The position numbers and the translations under genes were made by a program. Under the pieces are notes generated by a model that saw nothing but the letters and a program-made list of their open reading frames with translations, did no database searches and was not told where the DNA came from. 64,000 bases of DNA from Dehalococcoidia bacterium (GTDB lineage: Bacteria > Chloroflexota > Dehalococcoidia > GIF9 > UBA5629). How positions within the stretch are numbered: position 1 is the first letter of the stretch; each line of letters starts with the position of its first letter. The stretch is from NCBI GenBank assembly GCA_041653995.1, contig JBAZEK010000001.1, positions 1,030,613 through 1,094,612 of the forward strand, in the 5' to 3' direction. Positions 31,039 to 43,470 of this stretch are shown in pieces.

Positions 31039-31275
31039 TTACATGATGTAGGGCGTGCGGCAGCATTTAAGTGCAACACGATGAGAACATATGGTGGGCG
31101 ATACTGGATTTGAACCAGTGACCCCCTGTGTGTAAGACAGGTAAAAACCTTTAATTGACTGGAGCTTATTGATAATCTCTAGGGAAGCCTTACGTTGTCC
31201 TGAAAGAATCATGCTCAAATAGCTTTTACTGATACCTAATTCTTTGGCTAATTGACTCTGTGTTAACTTTTTCAT
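31039..31275 (-). CDS. XRE-family HTH regulator (island-borne; C-terminus reads through attL into host flank)
   Basis: LTQSQLAKELGISKSYLSMILSGQRKAS HTH_3 motif. The last ~35 codons are encoded by the att repeat and flank. Confidence 0.55.
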   Translation of the reverse strand: MKKLTQSQLAKELGISKSYLSMILSGQRKASLEIINKLQSIKGFYLSYTQGVTGSNPVSPTICSHRVALKCCRTPYIM

Positions 31276-31530
31276 TTATTTCACCCGCCTTTTTATATCC
31301 TTTAAGCCTGCGTTTCCAATTATCGGTAAATATTGGTACGACTTCTTCTGTCTTCCTTTTGCACTAAAGTTCCCCTGTGGTTTTCTCACAAAATGACAGT
31401 CTACCTCATCAATAAGCCATCTCCGTCCAATGTAGAGTGCATTAATCCGTCCCTCTGACAAAAGCTTACGAACCCGTCTCTCAGATATACCAAGCCTTTC
31501 TGCTGCCTGTGGAACCGTAAGTAGTTTCAT
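31276..31530 (-). CDS. excisionase-like HTH DNA-binding protein
   Basis: LLTVPQAAERLGISERRVRKLLSEGRINALYIGRRWLI is an Xis/MerR-type HTH_17-like motif. Confidence 0.6.
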   Translation of the reverse strand: MKLLTVPQAAERLGISERRVRKLLSEGRINALYIGRRWLIDEVDCHFVRKPQGNFSAKGRQKKSYQYLPIIGNAGLKDIKRRVK

Positions 31531-31823
31531 TCAATTACCTTCTATCATTTTAATATTATACCGTTATCGGAATAATGTCAAGTATAATTACAAGCTAAAA
31601 TATCTTTTCTTTTTGCCGCATTTTTCCATAATACTCCGCAGAATTTTTTCAAATCGTATTTAAATTAAGTTTTAAAAGTTCAAGAATGAGGGTTTATAAT
31701 ATGCATATAAACTGGAAGCATATGGAAGGAAGCACGATAGAAAGTTAGAACGTAAGCAAGCGAGTAAGCAAGAAGGAAAGCAGGCGAGCAGGGAAGCTAT
31801 GTTGCTTTCCTTTTTTTAATTTT

Positions 31824-32057
31824 TTGATTCGGAGGTACGAAATGACTGAAAACAAGGTCAAGGAAATTAGATTGAGCAAATGCATGAATCAGAGAGAACT
31901 GGCAGAGAGAGCTCATATCTGTCAAACAGCTATTTCAGACATTGAAAGGGGGGTAAGACTACCATGGAAAGCAGCGTCTGAAAAGCTTGCTATTGCATTG
32001 GGTGTCACAATCGAGGAATTATTCCCAAACAATCTTAGGGGAGGTAAAAATTGCTAA
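31824..32057 (+). CDS. XRE-family HTH regulator (divergent from Xis-like gene)
   Basis: MNQRELAERAHICQTAISDIERG motif. A 290-bp AT-rich divergent intergenic region resembles a lysogeny-type switch. Confidence 0.75.
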   Translation: MIRRYEMTENKVKEIRLSKCMNQRELAERAHICQTAISDIERGVRLPWKAASEKLAIALGVTIEELFPNNLRGGKNC

Positions 32058-32398
32058 ACAAAAATAGAACGTCTTTAAAGCTGGGAAACAAGAAAGTAGG
32101 CTACTTTGAAGGTGATAAATTCATCAAACCCGTAATCGGCTCAAAGCATCTGCTGAAATTTCCTTACCAAGCTTGGGCAATTGATGCCAAAGTATTTGAC
32201 GATGAAATTAAACCTAACGCCAATTATTTTATTGTAAGAGATAGGGAGTCGGGGCTTGAATATAGTTGTACGGTAAAGGACTTCGACAATTTAAAGCGAA
32301 CCATTAACAGAGGGTATGGTAAGCAGTACAGTCTATCTCTAAAACATTGGAAAATAGCAGCTATGGAAGACGCTGAAGCTTCCAGTAACGCAACATAG
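32051..32398 (+). CDS. hypothetical protein
   Basis: 115 aa ORF co-oriented with and overlapping the XRE gene. No recognisable motif. Confidence 0.4.
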   Translation: MLNKNRTSLKLGNKKVGYFEGDKFIKPVIGSKHLLKFPYQAWAIDAKVFDDEIKPNANYFIVRDRESGLEYSCTVKDFDNLKRTINRGYGKQYSLSLKHWKIAAMEDAEASSNAT

Positions 32399-32528
32399 AG
32401 TAGTGCAGCACCCGTTTTAGTAGTTGGAGGTGCTGTGTAAAAATGGTATTAGACAGAAGGAAAAGGCTGATGGAGGAGGGTATGACTCGCCATGATATTT
32501 CAGGAGCCTACTTATTTAATCAATTCAA

Positions 32529-33026
32529 GTGAGTTGTAATAGATGGTCATACCTATTCGATGGTCTTAAGGAGGAAAATATGATTCAGGGCATAGAAAAT
32601 TATATAAATTTAACAGATACCAAGAATGAATGGGCAAAATTTCTAAATGGCTTTGAATGGCATTGGTTCTTTACTCTCACATTTGATAAAAAGGTAAGTG
32701 ATGACTTGGCATACAAGCAATTCTTTAGGTGGAAGAATTGGATAAAGAGTTCAGTAGGACACAGAATTTTCTATCTAATTATTCCTGAGCGTCCCAAGTA
32801 TAAGGGAGATAATACTCATATTCATGGATTTCTTAATGGTGTTGAAAATGAGAAACCCTACATATGGAGAAGGAAATGGGAGGCAATGGCAGGCTTTTCT
32901 CGGATTCAACCCTATGATAGTTCAAGGGGTGCAAGCTATTATCTAGCGGATAAAATTGTATTTAAAGAAGAGGATATTTATCATAGCAAAGACCTAAATA
33001 TGATAAAGATAAATACACTCAATTAA
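32529..33026 (+). CDS. putative HUH-superfamily rolling-circle replication initiator (Rep)
   Basis: Three motifs in canonical order: motif I FFTLTF, motif II HIHGFL (HUH) and motif III SYYLADK (YxxxK). Confidence 0.45.
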   Translation: MSCNRWSYLFDGLKEENMIQGIENYINLTDTKNEWAKFLNGFEWHWFFTLTFDKKVSDDLAYKQFFRWKNWIKSSVGHRIFYLIIPERPKYKGDNTHIHGFLNGVENEKPYIWRRKWEAMAGFSRIQPYDSSRGASYYLADKIVFKEEDIYHSKDLNMIKINTLN

Positions 33027-33165
33027 ATCCATTATATATATCAATATGATTATTACTACAAACATCAATATTTATTTCTTTTACTTTTACTTTTCCTTAT
33101 GCCCCTTTTTTATTTTTGCCCCAAATATGAATTAAATATAAATATCTACAATTAATTGCATAAAA

Positions 33166-33858
33166 TTGGGGCATAGGGAAAAAATCACATATAAAATTCA
33201 AATAGAAAGTCAGGAGGAATCAGTAAGTAAAATGAGTACAATAATTTCAAAACCTACGACAATTCAAATTAGCATGCTTGGGACACATGCCTTTTGTGAA
33301 TATAGGATATATCTTGAGCTTGTTATGGGTTTTAAAGCACGAGGTACACCAGAAATGCTTGAAGGCACAAAAGCACACTCAAGGATAAATACGATGGCTT
33401 TCTTAACGAGAGATTCAAATATTAGCATTGAGGATGCGTTGCTCCAAGCAGAGTCAGACGGAAGAGAAATAACAAAAAGGAACGTACGGGTAACAGGTAA
33501 GATACTACGTGGGAATATCGATGAAATTCACATTGGGCCAAAAGAAATTACGATTATAGATGATAAAAAATGGGCAGAGCATTATCCATCATATAAAAAT
33601 CAAGTCTTTGGCTATTGCCTTGCGTTTAAAGAACAATACAACCCAAAGCAGCCGATATACGGTGCCATAAAGAATTATCAGTCTGGAAAGGAAGTCTGGA
33701 AAAAACAATTTTCAGTTTTGGAAGAGGAATATATAAACGGCATTGTTCAAAGAATACTGGGGATAATTCGTGAGGATATCACTCCAAAACCCATTGGTGT
33801 TAGAGAAGTATGCTGGCAATGTGGATTTAAAAATTACTGCAATGTAAGGACACGATAG
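33166..33858 (+). CDS. Cas4-like / PD-(D/E)XK RecB-family nuclease with 4-Cys cluster
   Basis: An N-terminal Cys (HAFCEY), a D...IDDKK nuclease core, a QVFGY (QxxxY) motif and a C-terminal CWQCGFKNYC three-Cys motif. No CRISPR array is nearby. Confidence 0.5.
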   Translation: MGHREKITYKIQIESQEESVSKMSTIISKPTTIQISMLGTHAFCEYRIYLELVMGFKARGTPEMLEGTKAHSRINTMAFLTRDSNISIEDALLQAESDGREITKRNVRVTGKILRGNIDEIHIGPKEITIIDDKKWAEHYPSYKNQVFGYCLAFKEQYNPKQPIYGAIKNYQSGKEVWKKQFSVLEEEYINGIVQRILGIIREDITPKPIGVREVCWQCGFKNYCNVRTR

Positions 33859-33895
33859 CAAAATGGTGGAAAAAGGAAAAAGAAGAAACTAACTA

Positions 33896-34159
33896 CTATA
33901 CTGCCTTGAAACCCACAATAAAGTAATTTGATTTATCAAATATAAGTCTTATCTTGTGTTCTGAATTATCCTTGCCGGCCAGGGCAATTAAGAATGATAG
34001 CTTCTTTGGATTAGTAACTGTCTTAGAAATTGGACGATGGACAATAAAACCCTCAAGTTCAATCTTCACATATCTACAGCCAGTCTTCGGATATGGCAAA
34101 TCCTTCTCTTCCACAATATCTATATATTTGCATATGGCTGAATTTGTCCTTCTTGGCAT
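33896..34159 (-). CDS. hypothetical protein
   Basis: 87 aa ORF on the opposite strand within the island. Confidence 0.3.
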   Translation of the reverse strand: MPRRTNSAICKYIDIVEEKDLPYPKTGCRYVKIELEGFIVHRPISKTVTNPKKLSFLIALAGKDNSEHKIRLIFDKSNYFIVGFKAV

Positions 34160-34503
34160 ATTTATTTCCTTTCTTCCCTTTTCCGCTAAATTTAAACTAA
34201 ATATAAATATCTACAAATTATTATATTAAATCCACAACCAAATTTGAATATGAATGCCACAGATAAATGGCGGAAAAGAAAAAGAGTCTTAGAGATATTA
34301 TTATTTTGTATTATTTTCTTTAATAGTCAGATAGCAAGTGTGGCTAAGGGCAATTTTACCTTTAAAAATATTGAATCTGGTTGTCATTTGTCTAGTGCTT
34401 TAAAAATAGAAAACCTTCACGTGTGAGAAATGCCAGTAGCACGTGTATTAGAAGCGGCATTTTAAATAAAATCTTAGCCCAAAGTCATAGCAAATATAGA
34501 TTG

Positions 34504-34532
34504 TTGCATGCGTCCTTTTAATACGATAGAAT
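34504..34532 (+). promoter_or_regulatory. sigma70-like promoter TTGCAT-17-TAGAAT (copy 1 of duplicated promoter-leader)
   Basis: The same architecture recurs at 40413-40441. It is followed by a GGGGAG RBS and an ATG at 34559. Confidence 0.5.
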
Positions 34533-34558
34533 ACGGTCAATGTAGTGAGGCTGGGGAG

Positions 34559-36502
34559 ATGAAATATTTACTTGCTTGTTTCATAGCACTATTCGTTATA
34601 TCAGCCTGTGCATCTCAAGTCCATGTTGGTGACCAAGCTCCAAACTTCACACTGACAGATATAAATGGTAAACGTATTAGTCTGCAAGATTTTCGTGGCA
34701 AGCAGGTTGTTCTTTATCTTTGGTTTTTATATTGTCCTGAATGTACAGAAGACCTTGCTGAGATTCAAGAGTTGAATAATAATAGTGACGAAAGAGTCAT
34801 TAAGTTCCTAACCATTAACCCAGAAAATTCATCAAAAGACGTTGCGGATTTTTTCACTAAAAATGGATATAGTTTCCCAGTTTTGTTTGATTTAGATGGA
34901 AGTATTTACAAGCAATATAATTTACGACCTCGGTCTGCACCCTACACAATAATTATTGCTCCTGATGGAAAGATTAACAATATTACAGTGGGGAATCTTC
35001 ATTATCAAGGTGGTTTAAAACGGTTAATTGGAGATAACGTAACATCCTTCAGTCCAAGTGCACAAACTCAAAAGACTCCAATAATTATCGTACCCAGTTT
35101 ACAATCTCATGGTGTCGATGAACTTGCTTATGTATCTAGCGAAACGAACACGAACTCTATATATGTCGTGAATGCAAACGGGGAATATATTGCTAACTCA
35201 TCTGGAAAAATGGATGCATTATACCATGTTAGTTGGTCGCCAAACGGAGATAAGATTATTTTTGAAGTGGTTAAAGATATCAATATAGACCAGAGAAATA
35301 TGACCCTTATTTCTTCGTCTGATATTTATTCTCTTGATATTAAAGACCATGAAGAGCGTAGACTTACTTCAAATTATCCGTATAGCAATTGTTCTCCCAC
35401 ATGGATTGAAGACGATAAAATCGTATTTTATTCAACAAGGGGAAGTTCGTATGGCAGTTTTTTACAAAATATATACATCATGAACGCAGACGGAAGTAAT
35501 CAGATAAATTTAACTAATTGTGCAGAGAATGTACCTATGGTATTAGAACCAATATTATCGCCTGACCACTTGTCTGCAGCATATATTACGGGTAAGTTAT
35601 TCGATGAAGATATATATGTGATAAACCTAGTGAATGGAAATAAATTTGAAATAGGCCATAATCCAACATTTGCACCCTGGACTTGGTGGTCTCCAAACAG
35701 TAAACAGATAGCGTATATATCTGCCTCTCTAAACGGGGGGCCTGAATCATTTTATCTCTACGATGTCGAAAAACAGAAACCGATAAAATACTATGATAGC
35801 CCTCAATCTTATTCTATTATGGAAATAGCATGGTCGCCAGACAGTAACAAAGTCGCTATTTTTGAAAAACCGCAGAGCTTGTATGTTTTAGATTGTCTGA
35901 GTTCCAAGTTTACAAAACTTGATGGGATATGTGACTGGGTAGTAGAGATGAAATGGATACCTAATAACCAACAAATAGCCATTATTGGTGACAGGTTTAC
36001 AAACAGAAACTTGTATGTAATTGATATTGGTGAGCAGAGTAAGCATAAAATCAATCCAGAGGGAACGGCAGTCGAGTCGTATCGATGGTCAACTGATAAT
36101 ACAAGAATCATTTATTGCTTAGATGATGGATATCTTTACACAACTTTCCTACCCAACTTAAATACCATAAAACTAATGCAACTTAATAAAAATACGATAA
36201 AAGGGTTAGCTTTGTCACCAGACGGTTTATTAATCGCTGTTGCTCTGAGTGACGATACTCTAACTGTAATTTCATTAAACAATAACAAGGTGTGCTTGTT
36301 AACTAATGATTATTACAATATTGGAGCAATTTCTTGGTCGCAAAACAGTAACATACTTGCATTTGAATACGGAACTTTATGGGATAGTCCGTTTGTATGC
36401 AGTAACATTCAAATCATCAATTTCGAAAACGAGGAACAGTTCATTAAATTAGATAAACCAATCTCAGGACGCTCTCCAATTTGGGCGAGAAAGGAAAAAT
36501 AA
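34559..36502 (+). CDS. lipoprotein: TlpA-like thioredoxin-fold (CPEC) domain fused to TolB-like beta-propeller
   Basis: Signal/lipobox MKYLLACFIALFVISAC. The redoxin motif is GKQVVLYLWFLYCPEC. The C-terminal ~450 aa carry repeated SWSPNGDKI, AWSPDSNKVA and RWSTDNTRII PD40-like blades. Track ORF 34508 probably starts at 34559. Confidence 0.75.
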   Translation: MKYLLACFIALFVISACASQVHVGDQAPNFTLTDINGKRISLQDFRGKQVVLYLWFLYCPECTEDLAEIQELNNNSDERVIKFLTINPENSSKDVADFFTKNGYSFPVLFDLDGSIYKQYNLRPRSAPYTIIIAPDGKINNITVGNLHYQGGLKRLIGDNVTSFSPSAQTQKTPIIIVPSLQSHGVDELAYVSSETNTNSIYVVNANGEYIANSSGKMDALYHVSWSPNGDKIIFEVVKDINIDQRNMTLISSSDIYSLDIKDHEERRLTSNYPYSNCSPTWIEDDKIVFYSTRGSSYGSFLQNIYIMNADGSNQINLTNCAENVPMVLEPILSPDHLSAAYITGKLFDEDIYVINLVNGNKFEIGHNPTFAPWTWWSPNSKQIAYISASLNGGPESFYLYDVEKQKPIKYYDSPQSYSIMEIAWSPDSNKVAIFEKPQSLYVLDCLSSKFTKLDGICDWVVEMKWIPNNQQIAIIGDRFTNRNLYVIDIGEQSKHKINPEGTAVESYRWSTDNTRIIYCLDDGYLYTTFLPNLNTIKLMQLNKNTIKGLALSPDGLLIAVALSDDTLTVISLNNNKVCLLTNDYYNIGAISWSQNSNILAFEYGTLWDSPFVCSNIQIINFENEEQFIKLDKPISGRSPIWARKEK

Positions 36503-36527
36503 GAAATTTCAAAAATGGAGACTGAAT

Positions 36528-36824
36528 ATGACTGGCGAATTGGGAAATTTTGTTATCGTCATGGGATTACCCTGTTTAGGAGCGCTGTTAATAGCTTTTT
36601 GTTCATTACCAACCGATAAATGGACAATAAAACACACTTTTATGTTGGTGGGAACTTCACTAATTTTTATTAGCTTTATTTTGCAAGCATATCAGATTAT
36701 TGATAAATACCCTGATAAAAATGAATATATATTTGGATGGTGGATTGTCGGTTTAGCTACCGTTATCATGGCTATAATAGGGCAAATTATTAGAATCAGA
36801 TACGGTAAAAGTTGGTTCCAATAG
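36528..36824 (+). CDS. small membrane protein
   Basis: 98 aa with three hydrophobic helices. Confidence 0.4.
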   Translation: MTGELGNFVIVMGLPCLGALLIAFCSLPTDKWTIKHTFMLVGTSLIFISFILQAYQIIDKYPDKNEYIFGWWIVGLATVIMAIIGQIIRIRYGKSWFQ

Positions 36825-36920
36825 GATAATAAAATAGTGGGAAAGGAAAGAGAAGGAAATTTAATTAGCTATCTATATTTAAGATAAGAGTGACTTATAG
36901 AACTTCATTGAGGTTGGGAG

Positions 36921-37451
36921 ATGCAACAACAGTATCAATGCCCTAATTGTAGGTATCCAGTTGCTTATGGGAATAATTTCTGTGGACATTGTAGACAACA
37001 ACTAATCTGGCAACAATTAATGCCACCTTCACCACCAGTACACCATCAGCAAACACCACAAGGCATTATTGGGAAATCACACGAGCAAAACACTTCTGGA
37101 CAAGGTGGTCAATCAATAATACCCGATGAAAAGCGTATTAAACTTCCAAAACTCAATATTCGTTTCGACTTTGAGTTGTTTCAAGCAATTGAGGACAATG
37201 ACCGTAAACTGGCTGAACAGCTCAAAGCAAAATATGGGGATGATGTTTATAATTCCAATTTTTATAACCTGCTTAGTATCGAAGACGCTAACTCAGTAGA
37301 CTCACTTCATCTTAAACTAGTATCAGTTGAAAAAATGAATTTCAATGATATTTTATGCGAAAGTATCAAAATAGAGACTGAAAAAGTACGCAAAAGGATA
37401 GAGGAGCTTGAGAATATAAAAAATTTACGCAACGGGATTGAGGAAGTGTAA
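36921..37451 (+). CDS. zinc-ribbon protein (MQQxYxCPxC family N-terminus)
   Basis: MQQQYQCPNCRYPVAYGNNFCGHCRQQLIW matches the N-termini of chromosomal genes at 56282 and 58107. The rest is charged and coiled-coil-like. Confidence 0.55.
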   Translation: MQQQYQCPNCRYPVAYGNNFCGHCRQQLIWQQLMPPSPPVHHQQTPQGIIGKSHEQNTSGQGGQSIIPDEKRIKLPKLNIRFDFELFQAIEDNDRKLAEQLKAKYGDDVYNSNFYNLLSIEDANSVDSLHLKLVSVEKMNFNDILCESIKIETEKVRKRIEELENIKNLRNGIEEV

Positions 37452-37511
37452 GGAACTGACTAAACCCCTGAAACTGGCAGCTCGAGTAAGAAAAATGGCG
37501 GGAAAGAAAAT

Positions 37512-39368
37512 TTGATTTATATGTTATGGGATGATACGTATCGTAAAGATGCAGCGGAGTATGAAATCTATCTGCGTATGCATCATAAAGAAAAAAACGA
37601 TTACGAGAAGCTTTTATCTAATCTTGAACGTGAGTGGTCAGAAAAATCAGTTAAAGAAGAAAACTACATATCGCTTAAAAAGGAATACACAGCGAAACTA
37701 CAGGAAACAAAGAAGTACATTTCAAAGCTGAAATTCCAGATTACAGCACTCATTAAAAAATGTAATAAAGACATAGATAAAATCGATAGCCAAATTGAAC
37801 AAATTAAATTGCGGCACAAAGTTGGTGAATATTCAGAGGAGAAACTCAAAGAACTATTATCACCATCTGAAACAGAAAGAAGGCAATTTGAATCCTTAAT
37901 AATCGAACTGAAACGCATACATGGCTTGAAATATATACCTAAACCAACTACCGATGATGTTGTATCAGAAACAGAACCGAGTCAGCCTAGAAGGTCTCCT
38001 ATCCCAACGTCATCTACTTCTATTTCAACAGCTGAAGAGCAAGCCCCCGAAATATCAGCACCAATGAGTTTTGAAGAACCGCCTCCTATTTTGGTACCTG
38101 CTGTATTTAAAAAGTCTTCACCTGTAAGAGTAAAGAAGAGTCTGTGGATTATGGCTTCGATTACTATGTTTGTAATATTAATTCTCTGTTTTGTTATTTG
38201 GAATATAGAAGTGCATAAAAAGGTAATCCCTCAGATTGGAGACCAAGCTCCAAACTTCTCTCTCCCAGATATGAATGGTAAAACGGTTAACCTTCAGGAC
38301 TTTCACGGAAAGGGTGTTGTTCTTTACCTTTGGGACACATCATGTCCTTACTGCAAAAATGACCTTAGCTGGATAAATGAATTAAATGGCTGCACCTATG
38401 ACGAAGCAATAATATTTTTAACTATTAATATCTCAGATTCACGTGGAACAGCTATTAAATATTTTGAGGAAAATGGATATAGTATTCCCGTTTTAAATGA
38501 TATGCGTGGGACGGTTATTAAGCAGTATGTAAAGTACACCTTAGGCCATACGTATCCAGATACTATTCTTATTGGTTCAAATGGCCAGATTCGTAATGTA
38601 AAAGTCGGGCCCTTCCAAAGCAAGACTGAATTAAAAACATTTATAGAATCAGGTTTAACCCCCCGTTGGGATAATACTCCTCCACAAATTTATGATATTA
38701 ATCTTTCTAAGGCCTCTATTTTGAGTTGGAAAACGGATGAGGAAACACATAGTAATATACAAGGGTTTCGTAATAGTGTCGGAGGTGCTGGAGTCACTCT
38801 TGGTGAAAATTGGACAAGATATCATAGCGTAAATGAAACAGTTTGCACTAATGGCTACTATGACCAAATTCAAATCAACTCGTATGACCGCTGCGGTAAT
38901 TCTGCTTCAAAAGTTTTTACACTGCCCAACTGCATAAATTTAGGTTGTAGAGCTCCTGATTTCACAGCAACTTCAACTAATAATCAGGATATAACGCTGT
39001 CCGCAGTACCTAGCAAAATGACTCTACTTCACTTCTGGCTACTCGGATGTGGTGCATGTGAAAAGGAACTTCCATTAATCCAAAAACTATATTATGAGCG
39101 TCCTAGAGAAGAACTTGAGATATTGGCTGTGAATGTTAGAGGTGACATATACAGCATAAATGACTTCGTTACTGCAAATGGTTATAGATTAATTATTTTA
39201 CTAGATACAGAAGGCATAATAGATGCCGCCTATCATAATCCAAGGTTCCCCACAACCTTTTTATTGGATTGCAATAAGGTAATTATTAACAAGCATGACG
39301 GTGCCTTTCAAAATTATGAAGAAATCGTTGATTTTGTAGGTCAGTATCCAAAACTTCCTGGTAAATAG
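37512..39368 (+). CDS. membrane-anchored protein with N-terminal coiled coil and two TlpA-like thioredoxin-fold domains (CPYC and CGAC)
   Basis: TTG start. Single TM (LWIMASITMFVILILCFVIW). Domain 1 is IPQIGDQAPNFSL...VVLYLWDTSCPYCKND. Domain 2 is GCRAPDF...LLHFWLLGCGACEKE. Confidence 0.7.
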   Translation: MIYMLWDDTYRKDAAEYEIYLRMHHKEKNDYEKLLSNLEREWSEKSVKEENYISLKKEYTAKLQETKKYISKLKFQITALIKKCNKDIDKIDSQIEQIKLRHKVGEYSEEKLKELLSPSETERRQFESLIIELKRIHGLKYIPKPTTDDVVSETEPSQPRRSPIPTSSTSISTAEEQAPEISAPMSFEEPPPILVPAVFKKSSPVRVKKSLWIMASITMFVILILCFVIWNIEVHKKVIPQIGDQAPNFSLPDMNGKTVNLQDFHGKGVVLYLWDTSCPYCKNDLSWINELNGCTYDEAIIFLTINISDSRGTAIKYFEENGYSIPVLNDMRGTVIKQYVKYTLGHTYPDTILIGSNGQIRNVKVGPFQSKTELKTFIESGLTPRWDNTPPQIYDINLSKASILSWKTDEETHSNIQGFRNSVGGAGVTLGENWTRYHSVNETVCTNGYYDQIQINSYDRCGNSASKVFTLPNCINLGCRAPDFTATSTNNQDITLSAVPSKMTLLHFWLLGCGACEKELPLIQKLYYERPREELEILAVNVRGDIYSINDFVTANGYRLIILLDTEGIIDAAYHNPRFPTTFLLDCNKVIINKHDGAFQNYEEIVDFVGQYPKLPGK

Positions 39369-39441
39369 ATAATTTCTTGATATTAAGAAATCGAGGTGTA
39401 CTGGTCTGAACCCCTGAAACTGGACAGCTTGAGTAAGAAAA

Positions 39442-39951
39442 ATGGCGGAAAAAGAAATGCAACAGGAGGAGCATCCCCTAAATATGGGGAAGCTACTTGT
39501 GAATTTCCAATCACTTGAGATAGCTCTCCGTCTATTTCTTTATAATGATGAAATTGCCTCTAGAGTTTCATCTCCTCAGGCGGTAAACCTAAATGCTATG
39601 AATGCGGGGGATATAGTAGCTGAAAATGCGTTCACAAACTATGATAGTCTAAGTCAACTCATTGATAAATATAATAACCATCCCAACATCATATCGACAG
39701 GTCTAACCATTGATAAGACTTTAGTGGACATACGTGATGCAATAGCTCATGGAAGAGTCGCTGGAGTCACTCCTTTGCTTGTGCCTCCTTTAAAACTAAT
39801 GAAGTTTGATAAACCAAAGAACAAAAGTGTGAAAGTAACATTTAGCGTTTTATTGACAAGGGAATGGTTCATTCTAGAGATGGCTAAGGTTCAAGATGCA
39901 GTTTTTAAAGTCTTTCAAGCTATCCAAATAATACAGAGTGCTAAGACATAA
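39442..39951 (+). CDS. hypothetical protein with possible HEPN-like Rx4H motif
   Basis: 169 aa. RDAIAHGR fits Rx4-6H. The evidence is weak. Confidence 0.35.
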   Translation: MAEKEMQQEEHPLNMGKLLVNFQSLEIALRLFLYNDEIASRVSSPQAVNLNAMNAGDIVAENAFTNYDSLSQLIDKYNNHPNIISTGLTIDKTLVDIRDAIAHGRVAGVTPLLVPPLKLMKFDKPKNKSVKVTFSVLLTREWFILEMAKVQDAVFKVFQAIQIIQSAKT

Positions 39952-40412
39952 GTGGTGCCCTCTGAAATCGCTCTGAGGGGCTGAAATCAGGGTGTTGCAT
40001 ATTGAACATGACGGATTCCACCTGTCATTACTATTCCAGCTTAATTAGAGCCTTTAAAGTATTAAACAGTAAAGGTAATAACTCTACTTCCTTTCCCTTA
40101 AGCCCCTTTATTATTTCTTCGCCTAAGTTTCCGTTCAAGTGAATTATGTCGCTTTTAAGACCAACAAACGCTGGTACACCATAAACACGTTTACGTTCAA
40201 GCCAATTATGTCGTTTTGCATATATTATTTCCAGCTTAAATTAACTACAGAAAAATGGGGCAAAAAGAGAAAAAGGGGAATTATATATCAATTTATTGTC
40301 AATAATCTTTGAAATACTATTACTTCATCTGAGAGAGATGCCAGCAGCTAAGTGTAACGGCATTGAATTTTAAATAACTTCTCAGCCCAAAGTGGTAACG
40401 CATATAGGTCTA

Positions 40413-40441
40413 TTGCATAAGTATTGTTCATATAATAGAAT
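40413..40441 (+). promoter_or_regulatory. sigma70-like promoter TTGCAT-17-TAGAAT (copy 2 of duplicated promoter-leader)
   Basis: 83 bp spanning promoter -10, RBS and the first 17 codons is identical to 34526-34608. Confidence 0.5.
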
Positions 40442-40467
40442 ACGGTCAATGTAGTGAGGCTGGGGAG

Positions 40468-41880
40468 ATGAAATATTTACTTGCTTGTTTCATAGCACTA
40501 TTCGTTATATCAGCCTGCACACCAAATAACTCAATAAACAACGTTGAGACATTCCCAAAAATCGGAGATAAGATACCGAATATCTCATGGACTACTATCA
40601 ATGGCGAAAAGATTGATTTAAATCAGTTTAAAGGCAGTTGGGTGCTACTATGCTATTGGTGCTCTTGCCCTGTACATAGGAATGACATACTGACTATTCA
40701 TAATGTTTATGATTCATTATATGATAAGAATCTCGATGTCATTGTAATTAATGATACTTATGCTCAGATAGAATTAGAGGCATTTGGAAAACAAAACAAT
40801 GTACCGTTTTATTTAATTGAAGATAATCAAAAAACAATTGATAAACTTGTACCATTTGGCAACAGGCCAATATATCTCTTAATTGATGGGAGTGGGGATT
40901 TACATGCTATCGAAATAGGTACATTTCGCTCTGGCGAAAATAGCGTTAACAATGTAATCAATTTCCTTGATGATGTGATTAAGGTAAGAATCGATAATAT
41001 TACAGTCACTAATATTACTTCAAATAGGGCAACTGTGAGATGGAAAACAGATAAGGCAGTACCGTGTTGGTTGGAAATTCACCCCCAAGGTGACCCAATC
41101 GGAAAGTGCATCGGCAAGACAAATCCAAATACATTTCATGAATTGATATTAAACTGTAATCCCAACACAGCTTACACTTTTAACGTAGCTGCTAGTGGAT
41201 TAGATAATTCTTTAATTAACGATGCAAGCAATCGTAGTAGTGAATTTTCATTTCAAACATTACCAAATTGGGTTACTTCTTTATATGAGGTTGACTCTAC
41301 TAAACCAAAAATATCGAATGTTAAAGTTTCTATAATTACAGATACGAGTGCAGAGTTATATTGGGAAACTGATGTGGAAGCTCAAGTCACCGCTACAATC
41401 TGTAAATATATATCCAGTACTGATGCGCCCTTAAACTCCCAGAAAATTGATTTTATAGAAGACATATATTTTACAAAGAAACATAGCTTTACAATTAGCT
41501 CTCTTGAGCCAAGACGATTATATGACGTTGGTTTAAATGCCAAAGATAGAATGGGAAGGGTTGCCGATTACAGTGTCGAATTTTTAACACAACCTTCAAA
41601 TTATACTCACGGAGCGAAGATATCCAATATATCTTTATATGACATCACGGACAGGAGTGCTAAATTAAAATGGTCAACTGACAAGTCAGTATGGAGTTCA
41701 GCCTGCTATAAATATGAGTGCTCTTCTGGGGACATCAACACTGAGCATTCATATACACTATCCTATGGTCTGGAACCCGATACAGAATACTGGGTGCAAA
41801 TTCTAGCACATGGGGAATCGGTATCTGATGTATTCAACTTCAGAACATTAAAGACAACAGATAAGGTAGATATGAAATGA
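40468..41880 (+). CDS. lipoprotein: TlpA-like thioredoxin-fold domain with variant CYWCSC motif plus three FN3/PAP-N-like domains
   Basis: Identical signal peptide MKYLLACFIALFVISAC. IGDKIPNISW...WVLLCYWCSCPVHRND. Three ~95-aa domains of type ITVTNITSNRATVRWKTD / VKVSIITDTSAELYWETD / ISNISLYDITDRSAKLKWSTD. Confidence 0.7.
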   Translation: MKYLLACFIALFVISACTPNNSINNVETFPKIGDKIPNISWTTINGEKIDLNQFKGSWVLLCYWCSCPVHRNDILTIHNVYDSLYDKNLDVIVINDTYAQIELEAFGKQNNVPFYLIEDNQKTIDKLVPFGNRPIYLLIDGSGDLHAIEIGTFRSGENSVNNVINFLDDVIKVRIDNITVTNITSNRATVRWKTDKAVPCWLEIHPQGDPIGKCIGKTNPNTFHELILNCNPNTAYTFNVAASGLDNSLINDASNRSSEFSFQTLPNWVTSLYEVDSTKPKISNVKVSIITDTSAELYWETDVEAQVTATICKYISSTDAPLNSQKIDFIEDIYFTKKHSFTISSLEPRRLYDVGLNAKDRMGRVADYSVEFLTQPSNYTHGAKISNISLYDITDRSAKLKWSTDKSVWSSACYKYECSSGDINTEHSYTLSYGLEPDTEYWVQILAHGESVSDVFNFRTLKTTDKVDMK

Positions 41881-41907
41881 AAGAAAATCAAAAGGGAGGT
41901 AAAGAAG

Positions 41908-42084
41908 ATGGTAGCAAATAAGAAGAAGTATTATGCAGGGGAATCAGCTAAAGTCTCTGGCAAATACAACGAATGCAGATTGGGCACAGGCAAAACAGGA
42001 GTAACAGCAAATGTCAAGAAGGGGGATACACTCCCACCACATAAAATAGGAGCTCATTGGGAGTTATCAAGAAAATCTAAATAA
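41908..42084 (+). CDS. small ORF (58 aa) with strong RBS, not in supplied track
   Basis: AAAGGGAGGTAAAGAAG precedes the ATG at 41908. It encodes MVANKKKYYAGESAKVSGKYNECRLGTGKTGVTANVKKGDTLPPHKIGAHWELSRKSK. Confidence 0.3.
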   Translation: MVANKKKYYAGESAKVSGKYNECRLGTGKTGVTANVKKGDTLPPHKIGAHWELSRKSK

Positions 42085-42316
42085 TATAGACATATTTAAG
42101 AAAGTGGTGACTTATAAAACTTCATGCTGTCCTGAAAGCTGAATGACCGAGTATATCTTTGCACCATAATAAAGTTCAGCCAAGGCACCGTTAAAATGTA
42201 CTACAGAATTGTTCTAAAGGGCCAAAATGGGGTATATAATATAGGGCATGACAGATTCTTCCTGCCTGAGCTTTTCAAGCTTAATTATTGAACAAATAAC
42301 TATGAAATCCTGATTG

Positions 42317-43081
42317 CTAACGAGGTAACTGATTTGAGCCGTTCACATCTTTGTAGACTTGAAGAGCATCCTCAAAGGATAAAGATTTTGAATACCTTTC
42401 AACCATAGAAATGCTTTCCCAACCGCCTAGATTTTGCACAATACGAGTGGATAACCCAGACTTAATATTGTGAATACAAAACCCTCTTCTATAGCTATGG
42501 GCGTTGGACTTAATGCCAGTTTCTTTAGACAATCGTTTAAGCATAGTTTTAATGCCAGCTCTTGATATTTCAAAACTATCATGCTCATCAAACCACTTTC
42601 CGATAACACCATTACCAGCTAAAGCCTTACGATACTTGTTACCCTTGCCCAGAATGGTTACTGTACCTTCACCCCAGTCAAAGTCTTTAGCGTGCACATT
42701 AGCACATTCACTCAGCCTTACTCCTGAGTACCATAAGAAACTAATTAATGCTCTATCACGTTCACAATGACAATGATTTATCAGAACTTCTAATTGTTCT
42801 TTTGATACCGCAGGCAATAGCTTCTTTTGAATTTTTGGGCTAGGAACTTTGTCAATAACCTTGTCGTGAATATAGCTATTGCTGTATAGCCATGAAATGA
42901 GAGTTTTGAGAGCTTGATAGAATCTTGCTTTGCCATTATGACAGGTAAGTGATTTTAGATAAGCATTAACTCCATCTGGACTTAGGGGATAACCAATAAA
43001 ATGAGTTAAAGTATATTCGTAAAATTCAATAGTTCGCTTACTACAACCATCGGGGCGAGAAGAAATAAACTTCTCCAACAA
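42317..43081 (-). CDS. int: tyrosine recombinase / integrase (short XerC/D-like)
   Basis: 254 aa with catalytic R (WYSGVRLSE), K (LGKGNKYRK), HSYRRG (HxxR), R and the terminal VERY tyrosine. Its start is 63 nt from tRNA-Val. Confidence 0.85.
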   Translation of the reverse strand: MLEKFISSRPDGCSKRTIEFYEYTLTHFIGYPLSPDGVNAYLKSLTCHNGKARFYQALKTLISWLYSNSYIHDKVIDKVPSPKIQKKLLPAVSKEQLEVLINHCHCERDRALISFLWYSGVRLSECANVHAKDFDWGEGTVTILGKGNKYRKALAGNGVIGKWFDEHDSFEISRAGIKTMLKRLSKETGIKSNAHSYRRGFCIHNIKSGLSTRIVQNLGGWESISMVERYSKSLSFEDALQVYKDVNGSNQLPR

Positions 43082-43143
43082 TTCTTTTGTGAACTTTTTG
43101 TAGCTAACTTGTGAATATTGTGAAATTGAGCTGTAGTTTTCTT

Positions 43144-43219
43144 TGGTGGGCGATACTGGATTTGAACCAGTGACCCCCTGTGTGTAAGACAGGTGCTCTA
43201 ACCGCTGAGCTAATCGCCC
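43144..43219 (-). tRNA. tRNA-Val (anticodon TAC); integration target
   Basis: 76-nt cloverleaf. Anticodon loop CTTACAC. CCA is encoded. It is highly similar to canonical tRNA-Val. Confidence 0.9.
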
Positions 43220-43226
43220 TGGGGAG

Positions 43227-43302
43227 TGGCACGCCTGGTGGGGCTTGAACCCACGGCCTCAGCCTCCGCAGGGCTGCGCTCTATCCACTGAGCTACAGGC
43301 GC
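43227..43302 (-). tRNA. tRNA-Arg-like with anticodon GCG as read
   Basis: 76-nt cloverleaf. Its overall sequence resembles tRNA-Arg(CCG), but the anticodon loop reads CTGCGGA. CCA is encoded. Confidence 0.7.
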
Positions 43303-43308
43303 ATAAAA

Positions 43309-43396
43309 TGGTGCCGAAGGTGGGAGTTGAACCCACACATCCGTTACGGATACTACGCCCTGAACGTAGCGCGTCTGCCATTCCGCCACTTCGGCC
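43309..43396 (-). tRNA. tRNA-Leu (anticodon CAG), long variable arm
   Basis: 88 nt. Anticodon loop TTCAGGG. A long extra arm and an encoded CCA are present. Confidence 0.85.
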
Positions 43397-43397
43397 C

Positions 43398-43470
43398 TGG
43401 GCAGCACAGGATTTGAACCTGTGACCCCTTGCGTGTGAAGCAAGTGCTCTAACCGCTGAGCTAGCCGCCC
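43398..43470 (-). tRNA. tRNA-Val (anticodon CAC)
   Basis: 73 nt without encoded CCA. Anticodon loop TTCACAC. Acceptor and T arms resemble the Val(TAC) gene. Confidence 0.85.

Follow-up and report, generated by a model that had tools for sequence, protein, structure and literature searches.

The question raised by the locus described here is whether a very small protein, encoded on an island of foreign composition, could give this island a replicative life of its own. The stretch of DNA concerned, hereafter the window, comprises 64,000 nucleotides of a Dehalococcoidia bacterium (Chloroflexota; GenBank assembly GCA_041653995.1, contig JBAZEK010000001.1, forward-strand positions 1,030,613 to 1,094,612; coordinates below are those of the window). 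An earlier examination of its letters, referred to here as the sequence-only reading, had proposed that an open reading frame (ORF) near the middle of the window encodes a minimal rolling-circle initiator (Rep) of the HUH type. The answer we propose is that this ORF encodes a HUH Rep belonging to the regulatory and replication module of an island integrated at a tRNA-Val gene, and that the excised circle would, on balance, probably replicate by the rolling-circle mechanism. This is the best reading of the locus, and every step beyond the identity of a Rep-class HUH nuclease is one that we infer.

A stand-alone endonuclease of the Rep class

The ORF of 165 codons is present at 32529..33026 on the forward strand, opens with GTG and carries the motifs FFTLTF, HIHGFL and SYYLADK in the canonical order. 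Its true start is most likely the ATG at 32580, which gives a product of 148 rather than 165 residues, because a strong AAGGAGG lies 5-11 nt ahead of this codon, the public gene calls for P0001 and L078 begin rep there, and the homolog at the related locus L002 (46% identical) has an in-frame TAA directly 5' of the equivalent ATG. The frame and its three motifs, whose columns are near-invariant among relatives, are therefore as the sequence-only reading described them, whereas the protein is probably shorter. As judged from sequence comparison, rep is kept by purifying selection, since the ratio of nonsynonymous to synonymous substitution (dN/dS) is 0.16 against the L001 homolog (68% identical), with synonymous sites near saturation (proportion of differing synonymous sites, pS, 0.60), and 0.19 against the L002 homolog.

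The one Pfam match of the window Rep at E<=1 is PF23343 (REP_ORF2-G2P), which covers residues 29-123 with 28.0 bits and an E-value of 2.7e-6, the gathering cut-off being 27.8 bits. None of the families named in the sequence-only reading (Rep_1, Rep_2, Rep_trans, Viral_Rep and the Y1_Tnp family of IS200 transposases) was matched in this search, and no match was returned by PHROGs, NCBIfam or PADLOC. A HUH family is nonetheless significantly matched, PF23343 being recognised not only in the window Rep but in 63/63 relatives (best E 1.3e-18), of which 14 also match RepSA, one Rep_N and one Helitron_like_N. The family is a large one: an exhaustive HMMER search, whose counts are of cluster representatives, gave at least 632 members at E<=1e-3 and 68 at <=1e-10, mostly of 130-230 aa. 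A word-indexed homolog search of the window Rep had retrieved 2 proteins only, and a profile built from 2 sequences found no match in the PDB.

Conservation was read from two alignments, of 69 and of 63 relatives, with residue numbers referring to the 148-aa protein. The near-invariant columns in both are W27, T34, F35, H80, H82, G105 and Y121. Motif I (FFTLTF, of the pattern u-u-T-u-x-u) occupies residues 30-35, T34 being kept in 68/69 sequences and F35 in 65/69; the pair H80-I-H82 is invariant in all 63 relatives of the second alignment, and Y121 is kept in 68/69 and 62/63. Glu70, retained in about 90% of the sequences (61/69 and 57/63), matches a Glu of the protein ORF119 of Sulfolobus islandicus rod-shaped virus 1 (SIRV1) in a profile alignment, and is a plausible candidate for a third metal ligand beside H80 and H82. 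The predicted nucleophile is Y121 (Y138 in the numbering of the 165-aa ORF), because Y120, the first Tyr of the 'YY' pair, is not conserved. The consensus of motif III in the family, G-A-x-Y-Y-x-x-K-Y, is of the two-tyrosine type, and the second Tyr of Y-x-x-K-Y is found in 48/63 of the wider family; in 11/12 members of the window subfamily this position is occupied by Lys. The motif of the window Rep reads Y121-L-A-D-K125, with no second Tyr four residues on. By alignment, the window Rep is a single-tyrosine Rep whose subfamily has lost the second Tyr of Y-x-x-K-Y.

The family profile, run against the PDB, retrieves SIRV1 ORF119 (2x3g) at E 6.4e-4, with motif I, the Glu and the HUH motif aligned and the HYH of ORF119 facing H80-I-H82; it is the only solved structure found by this sequence profile, the parvovirus NS1 protein being reached at E 0.057. 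The AlphaFold model computed from the 63-sequence alignment has a mean predicted local distance difference test score (pLDDT) of 93.2, a predicted template-modelling score (pTM) of 0.86 and a b-a-b-b-a-b-a topology (the pLDDT fell to 49 with a 2-sequence alignment only). In this high-confidence model the motifs fall on the catalytic elements: strand 29-35 carries motif I, E70 closes strand 64-70, the HUH motif is on strand 80-86 and Y121 is on the last helix (118-128), C-terminal to the HUH motif, which is the Rep order and not the relaxase order. The best Foldseek matches in the PDB are the complex of porcine circovirus 2 (PCV2) Rep with single-stranded DNA (ssDNA), ORF119 (probability 1.0, template-modelling score, TM, 0.50/0.61), NS1 of minute virus of mice (MVM) and of B19, other circovirus Reps, and the Reps of adeno-associated virus (AAV) and wheat dwarf virus (WDV). 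Among models of viral proteins, 172 structural matches were obtained at E<=1e-3 with a TM of up to 0.69, the named ones being Microvirus replication initiators. The model places the window Rep nearest, in predicted structure, to the initiators of Microviridae and filamentous phages and to SIRV1 ORF119.

The combination of the PF23343 match, the conserved catalytic columns and the Rep-like model bears out the proposal of a minimal HUH Rep: the product of 32580-33026 is shown by computation, from sequence and predicted structure, to be a Rep-class HUH endonuclease that stands alone and has a single domain. Neither of the two outcomes that the sequence-only reading had set against itself, a lack of significant matches to HUH families and motifs lying off the catalytic positions of a model, was observed. 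No match to the window Rep was found by tblastn in GenBank phages or in PLSDB; the whole Rep family is absent from PLSDB (72,556 curated plasmids), the only match to the wider family in GenBank phages is the Microviridae VP4 (E~7e-4), and our literature search found no paper describing this protein. The window Rep is real but unusually small, and integrated elements of this general kind are already known.

Relatives, island and flanks of rep

Loci encoding Reps of the family were collected from species-representative genomes by means of a hand-made degenerate motif-I pattern and checked with the family hidden Markov model (HMM), which confirmed nearly all of the 70 loci found. Their hosts belong to the Acidobacteriota, Gemmatimonadota, Chloroflexota, Verrucomicrobiota, Planctomycetota, Proteobacteria and Bacillota (longer proteins, more distantly related), and include one Aenigmatarchaeota metagenome-assembled genome. 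A tyrosine or serine recombinase, verified by Pfam, lies within the <=8 kb examined in 14 of the 31 distinct loci scoring >=90 bits (Pfam confirmed 21/23 of the recombinase candidates tested). A tyrosine integrase stands directly 3' of rep in L003 and L081, the P0005 contig combines integrase, xis and Rep, and L005 has a large serine recombinase. In L006, a 147-aa family member is paired with a Zot ATPase on a filamentous-phage-like contig.

Four contigs have matching ends, namely L033, L065 (1,378 bp), L012 (6.5 kb) and L007 (6.7 kb). The first of them (L033:1-1224, JAGGTC010000006.1) has a terminal overlap of 55 nt that closes it into a circle of 1,169 bp, encoding a 158-aa two-tyrosine Rep of the family and one other small ORF, with a perfect 14-bp hairpin (296-336, z -6.0) situated 15 nt upstream of rep. 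From this gene content, L033 looks like a near-minimal rolling-circle replicon, and it would constitute the best available support, albeit indirect, for the capacity of this type of Rep to sustain an autonomous circle.

The features of the window are collected in Table 1. The island that carries rep measures 12,052 bp between the two copies of a perfect 51-nt direct repeat corresponding to the 3' end of tRNA-Val(tac), and its content in guanine plus cytosine (GC) is 35.9%, as against 53.6 and 54.2% in the flanks. It displays all the hallmarks of a tRNA-integrated island, with a tRNA 3'-end repeat, an adjacent tyrosine integrase and a deviant composition, and the word 'island' used in the sequence-only reading is upheld by the 51-nt repeat and the drop in GC.

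Table 1. Features of the island and its borders (coordinates of the window).
Feature	Position	Strand	Evidence or remark
Small HTH_3 gene, reading outward across attL	31039..31275	-	HTH_3, E 1.8e-10
attL, the displaced duplicate of the last 51 nt of tRNA-Val(tac)	31092..31142	-	Perfect repeat of 43144-43194
Excisionase-type DNA-binding protein (xis)	31276..31530	-	HTH_17, E 2.8e-10; TIGR01764 'excise' above cut-off
Cro/CI-type helix-turn-helix regulator, opening the rightward module	31842..32057	+	HTH_3, E 5.9e-10; PHROG transcriptional repressors; start as in L078
115-aa protein without family match	32051..32398	+	Missing from L001 and L002
Conserved non-coding block upstream of rep	32443..32579	+	Box GGAGGnTATGACy at 32473-32486; candidate cis element
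Mini HUH Rep, 148 aa (predicted start)	32580..33026	+	FFTLTF, Glu70, His80-Ile-His82, Tyr121; single-tyrosine variant
Conserved block 3' of rep	33027..33178	+	Imperfect hairpin 33095-33178 with CAAATATGAATTAAATATAAATATCTACAATTAATTG in loop; candidate origin or regulatory site
Cas4-like PD-(D/E)XK nuclease with C-terminal Cys cluster	33232..33858	+	TIGR00372, E 7.6e-14 (below cut-off); Pfam Cas_Cas4, PDDEXK_1
Cargo: three AhpC/TSA-redoxin lipoproteins and small ORFs	34508..41880	+	Fused to beta-propeller or FN3; paralogous 5' ends
Tyrosine recombinase (integrase), catalytic part	42317..43081	-	Phage_integrase, 76 bits; annotated TTG start; NCBI 'tyrosine-type recombinase/integrase'
tRNA-Val(tac)	43144..43219	-	ARAGORN; its 3' 51 nt, 43144-43194, are attR

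The only Pfam families found on the island are regulators, the Rep, the Cas4-like nuclease, redoxin-type lipoproteins and the integrase. No Walker-A coding pattern was detected in it (31092-43194), and therefore no Zot, FtsK/TraB, VirB4 or coupling protein. Judged from its sequence, the island encodes no transfer machinery and is non-conjugative, hence no integrative and conjugative element, in agreement with the sequence-only reading, which had noted no conjugation genes. The same reading had called the element AICE- or integrated-plasmid-like. The first term (actinomycete integrative and conjugative element) is rejected, since neither the Walker-A scan nor Pfam reveals a translocase of the FtsK/TraB type; the second, or that of a cryptic integrated element, fits better. 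The identity of an inovirus prophage is likewise rejected, as the island has no Zot/pI-type ATPase, and so is that of a defence system, as the Rep matches no PADLOC model.

Several observations concern the neighbours of rep. The DNA of xis is 89% identical to that of L001. The Cas4-like nuclease, which has no CRISPR context, also accompanies the Rep in L002, where the order xis-Rep-Cas4 is found, and in L080 (the Reps of these two loci being 46-51% identical to that of the window). The cargo genes at 34508-36502, 37512-39368 and 40468-41880 encode secreted AhpC/TSA-redoxin paralogues extended by a beta-propeller, a second redoxin domain or FN3 repeats, and two of them share 105-nt 5' ends (34504-34608 and 40413-40517, 92% identical) that encode one and the same signal peptide of a lipoprotein. 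The purine-rich 20-mer AAAAATGGSGGMAAAAGAAA is present in 6 copies against 0.03 expected, all within the island and in the direction of the neighbouring genes, at 31606-31625 on the minus strand and at 33859-33878, 34263-34282, 37491-37510, 39438-39457 and 40251-40270 on the plus strand; it may be an operator, a leader or an iteron. Four tRNA genes adjoin the island at 43144-43470 (Val-tac, Arg-gcg, Leu-cag and Val-cac), the last being 82% identical to the att-bearing Val-tac and therefore a potential secondary site. Related islands use other integration sites. In L001 (8867-9300), an intact tRNA-Ala(tgc) borders the island on the xis side, and the 20 kb examined contain no recognisable integrase. 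In L083 (1-120), a variant integrase (88% identical in DNA) lies against the 5' half of a tRNA-Ala left unrestored.

The DNA on either side of rep resembles that of L001 over an upstream block (32470-32579, 74% identical) and a downstream block (33027-33170, 79% identical), so that 21-26% of flank positions differ versus 60% at synonymous sites: by this comparison, both non-coding flanks of rep are under constraint. The upstream box GGAGGnTATGACy recurs in L080 and partly in L002. An ORF of 29 aa (32443-32532), which figures among the gene calls of L078 and L079, overlaps the upstream block, and both L001 and L080 retain its core MT[RI][HI][DH]I; the conserved unit may be this peptide or the box. 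Another shared upstream motif, nTTGwawwwG, holds too little information to be told from chance. Downstream, the arms of the imperfect hairpin form a duplex of -14.2 kcal/mol in the window. Arm pairing is significant in three loci, being equalled in 0 of 1000 shuffles for the window, 0 for L001 and 6 for L002; the GC core of the arms co-varies in these loci (GCCCC/GGGGC, GCCGA/TCGGC and CCGC/GCGG), and the box in the loop is common to four loci. Prediction gave no sigma70-like promoter for the downstream block, which leaves a promoter there as a possible but unsupported alternative, and the short hairpins close to the rep 3' end have no conserved counterpart in L001. The sequence AAATATAAATATCTACAA is contained in a 70-nt direct repeat (33097-33166 and 34162-34231, 74% identical), of which one copy lies in the loop of the hairpin that follows rep and the other ahead of the cargo; the block next to the latter copy (34244-34340) is also represented in L001.

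At least 13 loci of the wider family have a TTGCTTGA box next to rep and on its strand; in L011 and L035, this box lies at the apex of a hairpin. Its extended form, (c)cgTTGCTTGA(c/a)gg...gtgtgtc, precedes rep by 26-67 nt or follows it at 60-200 nt, in hosts from several phyla (L005, L043, L035, L009, L074, L058, L011, L010, L059, L022, L023 and L076). This box, which contains CTTGA, is a candidate nick site for the family; like the Zot pairing in L006, it adds indirect evidence that family members may replicate autonomously.

Proposed replication of the excised circle and its alternatives

In the mechanism we propose, the integrase and the excisionase would excise the island as a circle, and the Rep would then bind a specific site adjoining its own gene. 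The metal being held by Glu70, His80 and His82, Tyr121 would cut one strand and join covalently to its 5' end, thereby liberating a 3'-OH that would prime leading-strand synthesis by a host polymerase with the help of a host helicase, which is needed because the Rep has no helicase domain. Since the subfamily has lost the second Tyr of Y-x-x-K-Y, termination and re-ligation would call for a second subunit, as in the dimeric ORF119, or for another nucleophile. The outcome would be the production of plasmid-like copies of the excised island.

Several observations weigh against this proposal. The window Rep exceeds the PF23343 cut-off by just 0.2 bits, and its Foldseek E-values against the PDB are weak (>=2e-3), with ferredoxin-like proteins such as S6 interleaved among the Reps. 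The island contains no recognisable helicase, single-stranded DNA-binding protein or single-strand origin. The hairpins flanking rep in the window have z-scores of only -0.4 to -1.6 (both flanks, both strands; about -1.5 for the downstream one), and the downstream hairpin is not significant in L080; furthermore, its arms resemble inverted, looser copies of the dispersed 20-mer AAAAATGGSGGMAAAAGAAA, which weakens its interpretation as an origin. The TTGCTTGA box of the family is at chance level in the window and has no counterpart there. Thus the rep flanks appear to hold candidate cis elements, among which no origin or nick site can be assigned with confidence. Lastly, scans of metagenome contigs for the attP junction and for an empty attB gave 0 matches each, and the two other contigs with the exact Rep are not excised forms; L078 shows the integrated configuration found in the window, and L079, a fragment of 3.4 kb, begins inside the att core.

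Other explanations of the same protein must be weighed. The Rep might be a relaxase that nicks an origin of transfer (oriT) of the excised island, the strand being exported by the transfer or packaging machinery of a helper element, in the manner of MobT or NicK, which are of the Rep_trans type. The horizontal movement of an island endowed with an integrase and xis and devoid of transfer genes would indeed need such help, a box resembling a nick site is kept next to rep across phyla, and Rep-type HUH/Rep_trans relaxases are documented for integrative and conjugative elements (ICEs; PMC6499999 and PMC4595007). We hold this role to be distinctly improbable, because the Tyr lies C-terminal to the HUH motif, as in the Rep class, the order in canonical HUH relaxases being the reverse. 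Moreover, the nearest matches in structure and sequence are replication initiators of viruses and plasmids, a member of the family resides on a circle of about 1.2 kb without any mobilisation partner, and the 64 kb of the window show no conjugative system. By analogy with NicK, which does both, nicking for transfer and for replication would not be mutually exclusive.

The gene might also be the relic, or the domesticated form, of a filamentous or microvirus-like phage module that has no role in the maintenance of the island and that may, with the Cas4-like nuclease, interfere with ssDNA replicons. The Zot-bearing filamentous-phage-like contig in the family, the Microviridae VP4 as nearest named relatives, the pairing of Rep with a Cas4-like nuclease in 3/4 of the closest loci and the related island L001, which lacks a recognisable integrase in the 20 kb examined, all speak for this view. 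It is nevertheless unlikely in the light of a dN/dS of 0.16-0.19 with intact catalytic residues, of a conserved synteny with xis and of constrained non-coding flanks, and the island has no phage structural or Zot gene, nor does the Rep match any PADLOC defence model. As for a transposase of the IS200/IS605 Y1 type, to which the similar size (about 150 aa) and the combination of HUH with a single catalytic Tyr could point, it is effectively refuted and scarcely deserves credence: Y1_Tnp is not matched at E<=1, a Rep-specific motif I is present, no TnpA figures among the structural matches, and the gene exists in a single copy in the window, inside an integrase-bounded island and without the flanking hairpins of an insertion sequence (IS).

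The replication of the excised circle could be connected with an unusual organisation of the integrase. The predicted attP consists of GAGCTGTAGTTTTCTT, the core and AAAAACCTTTAATTGA. On the minus strand, the stop codon of xis abuts the ATG of the small HTH gene, which crosses attL, and in the predicted circle this HTH gene continues in frame and stop-free through the 51-nt core and 62 bases beyond it into the integrase ORF, to give a product of 336 aa with HTH_3 and Phage_integrase domains. The probability of such an in-phase, stop-free junction by chance is ~0.07. The integrated catalytic piece of 254 aa has no ATG or GTG and only a TTG TTG without Shine-Dalgarno sequence; in the variant L084, TTA TTA stands in their place, and the frame stays open until homology with the window ends. 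PF16795, the Pfam family of SSV-type integrases, is not matched, and the 336-aa fusion was not found in the sequence collection. An apparent 37-aa 'N-terminal extension' of the integrase P0222 was rejected as evidence for the fusion, as this gene call runs into a tRNA-Ala fragment. The hypothesis that the integrase gene is split by integration in the SSV manner, with attP inside the int ORF, is thus a tentative one, which we regard as possible and more probably wrong than right. Somewhat more doubtful still is its extension, in which the island would be the bacterial counterpart of the archaeal SSV/pTN3-type elements, the full-length integrase of 336 aa, translationally coupled to xis, being produced only from the circle that the mini-Rep keeps alive.

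In conclusion, the rolling-circle reading gives this Dehalococcoidia island a concrete predicted replication function, in a group that is hard to culture and whose mobile elements are poorly known, and designates 32400-33250, rep included, as a candidate minimal replicon for vector building. The survey of relatives also shows that PF23343, listed only as a phage replication domain, consists mostly of stand-alone proteins of about 150 aa beside integrases in many uncultivated phyla. Could the modules associating a mini-Rep and an integrase in Acidobacteriota, Gemmatimonadota, Chloroflexota, Planctomycetota and others represent widespread and undescribed integrating rolling-circle episomes? If the integrase is split as well, a start-less catalytic fragment would be expected at one integrated end and an HTH fragment at the other, the Rep would acquire a clear purpose, and the view, published in a review (PMC8371274), that only archaea have self-disrupting integrases would be overturned.

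Comparison with known systems

PF23343 groups the replication proteins of the plectrovirus ORF2 and inovirus G2P types, to which the window Rep is linked by its family membership and by the L006 member located beside Zot; it differs from them in reaching the family only at threshold and in lying on an island without phage morphogenesis genes. The Microviridae initiators (phiX174 gpA and gokushovirus VP4) provide the best viral structural matches and, with VP4, the only match in GenBank phages. The phiX174 initiator is of the two-tyrosine type, as is the family consensus of motif III. By contrast, the window Rep is half the size or less, has a Lys in place of the second Tyr and is not carried by the genome of an ssDNA phage. 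A precedent for a helicase-less, single-tyrosine mini-Rep is the rudivirus protein SIRV1 ORF119 (119 aa), reported to be a new dimeric Rep having the fold of superfamily-II Reps (PMC4187194), whose motif I, Glu and HUH motif align with those of the window Rep; the identity is ~19%, however, and ORF119 serves the linear genome of an archaeal virus by a 'flip-flop' mechanism.

At the level of the whole element, the AICEs of the pSAM2 type (Int, Xis, RepSA and Tra) are similarly integrated and combine Int and Xis with a HUH Rep, and RepSA is matched by 14/63 relatives; the differences are the phylum, the absence from the island of an FtsK/TraB-like or any other P-loop protein, and the lack of a RepSA match for the window Rep itself. 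Two integrated elements are copied as excised circles by their own nicking protein, as we propose here: ICEBs1, which replicates plasmid-like by rolling circle through NicK (PMC4595007), and the provirus SNJ2 (Rep-Arvir), whose excised circle replicates from an origin that is a hairpin just downstream of rep (PMC13107129). Their initiators are of the Rep_trans type, not HUH, and have an unrelated fold, and their replication is demonstrated, whereas that of the island is deduced. The archaeal cryptic integrated elements (PMC6563490) share with the island the association of an integrase, small regulators, a rolling-circle replication endonuclease and cargo, the host here being a bacterium of the Dehalococcoidia and the Rep belonging to another family.

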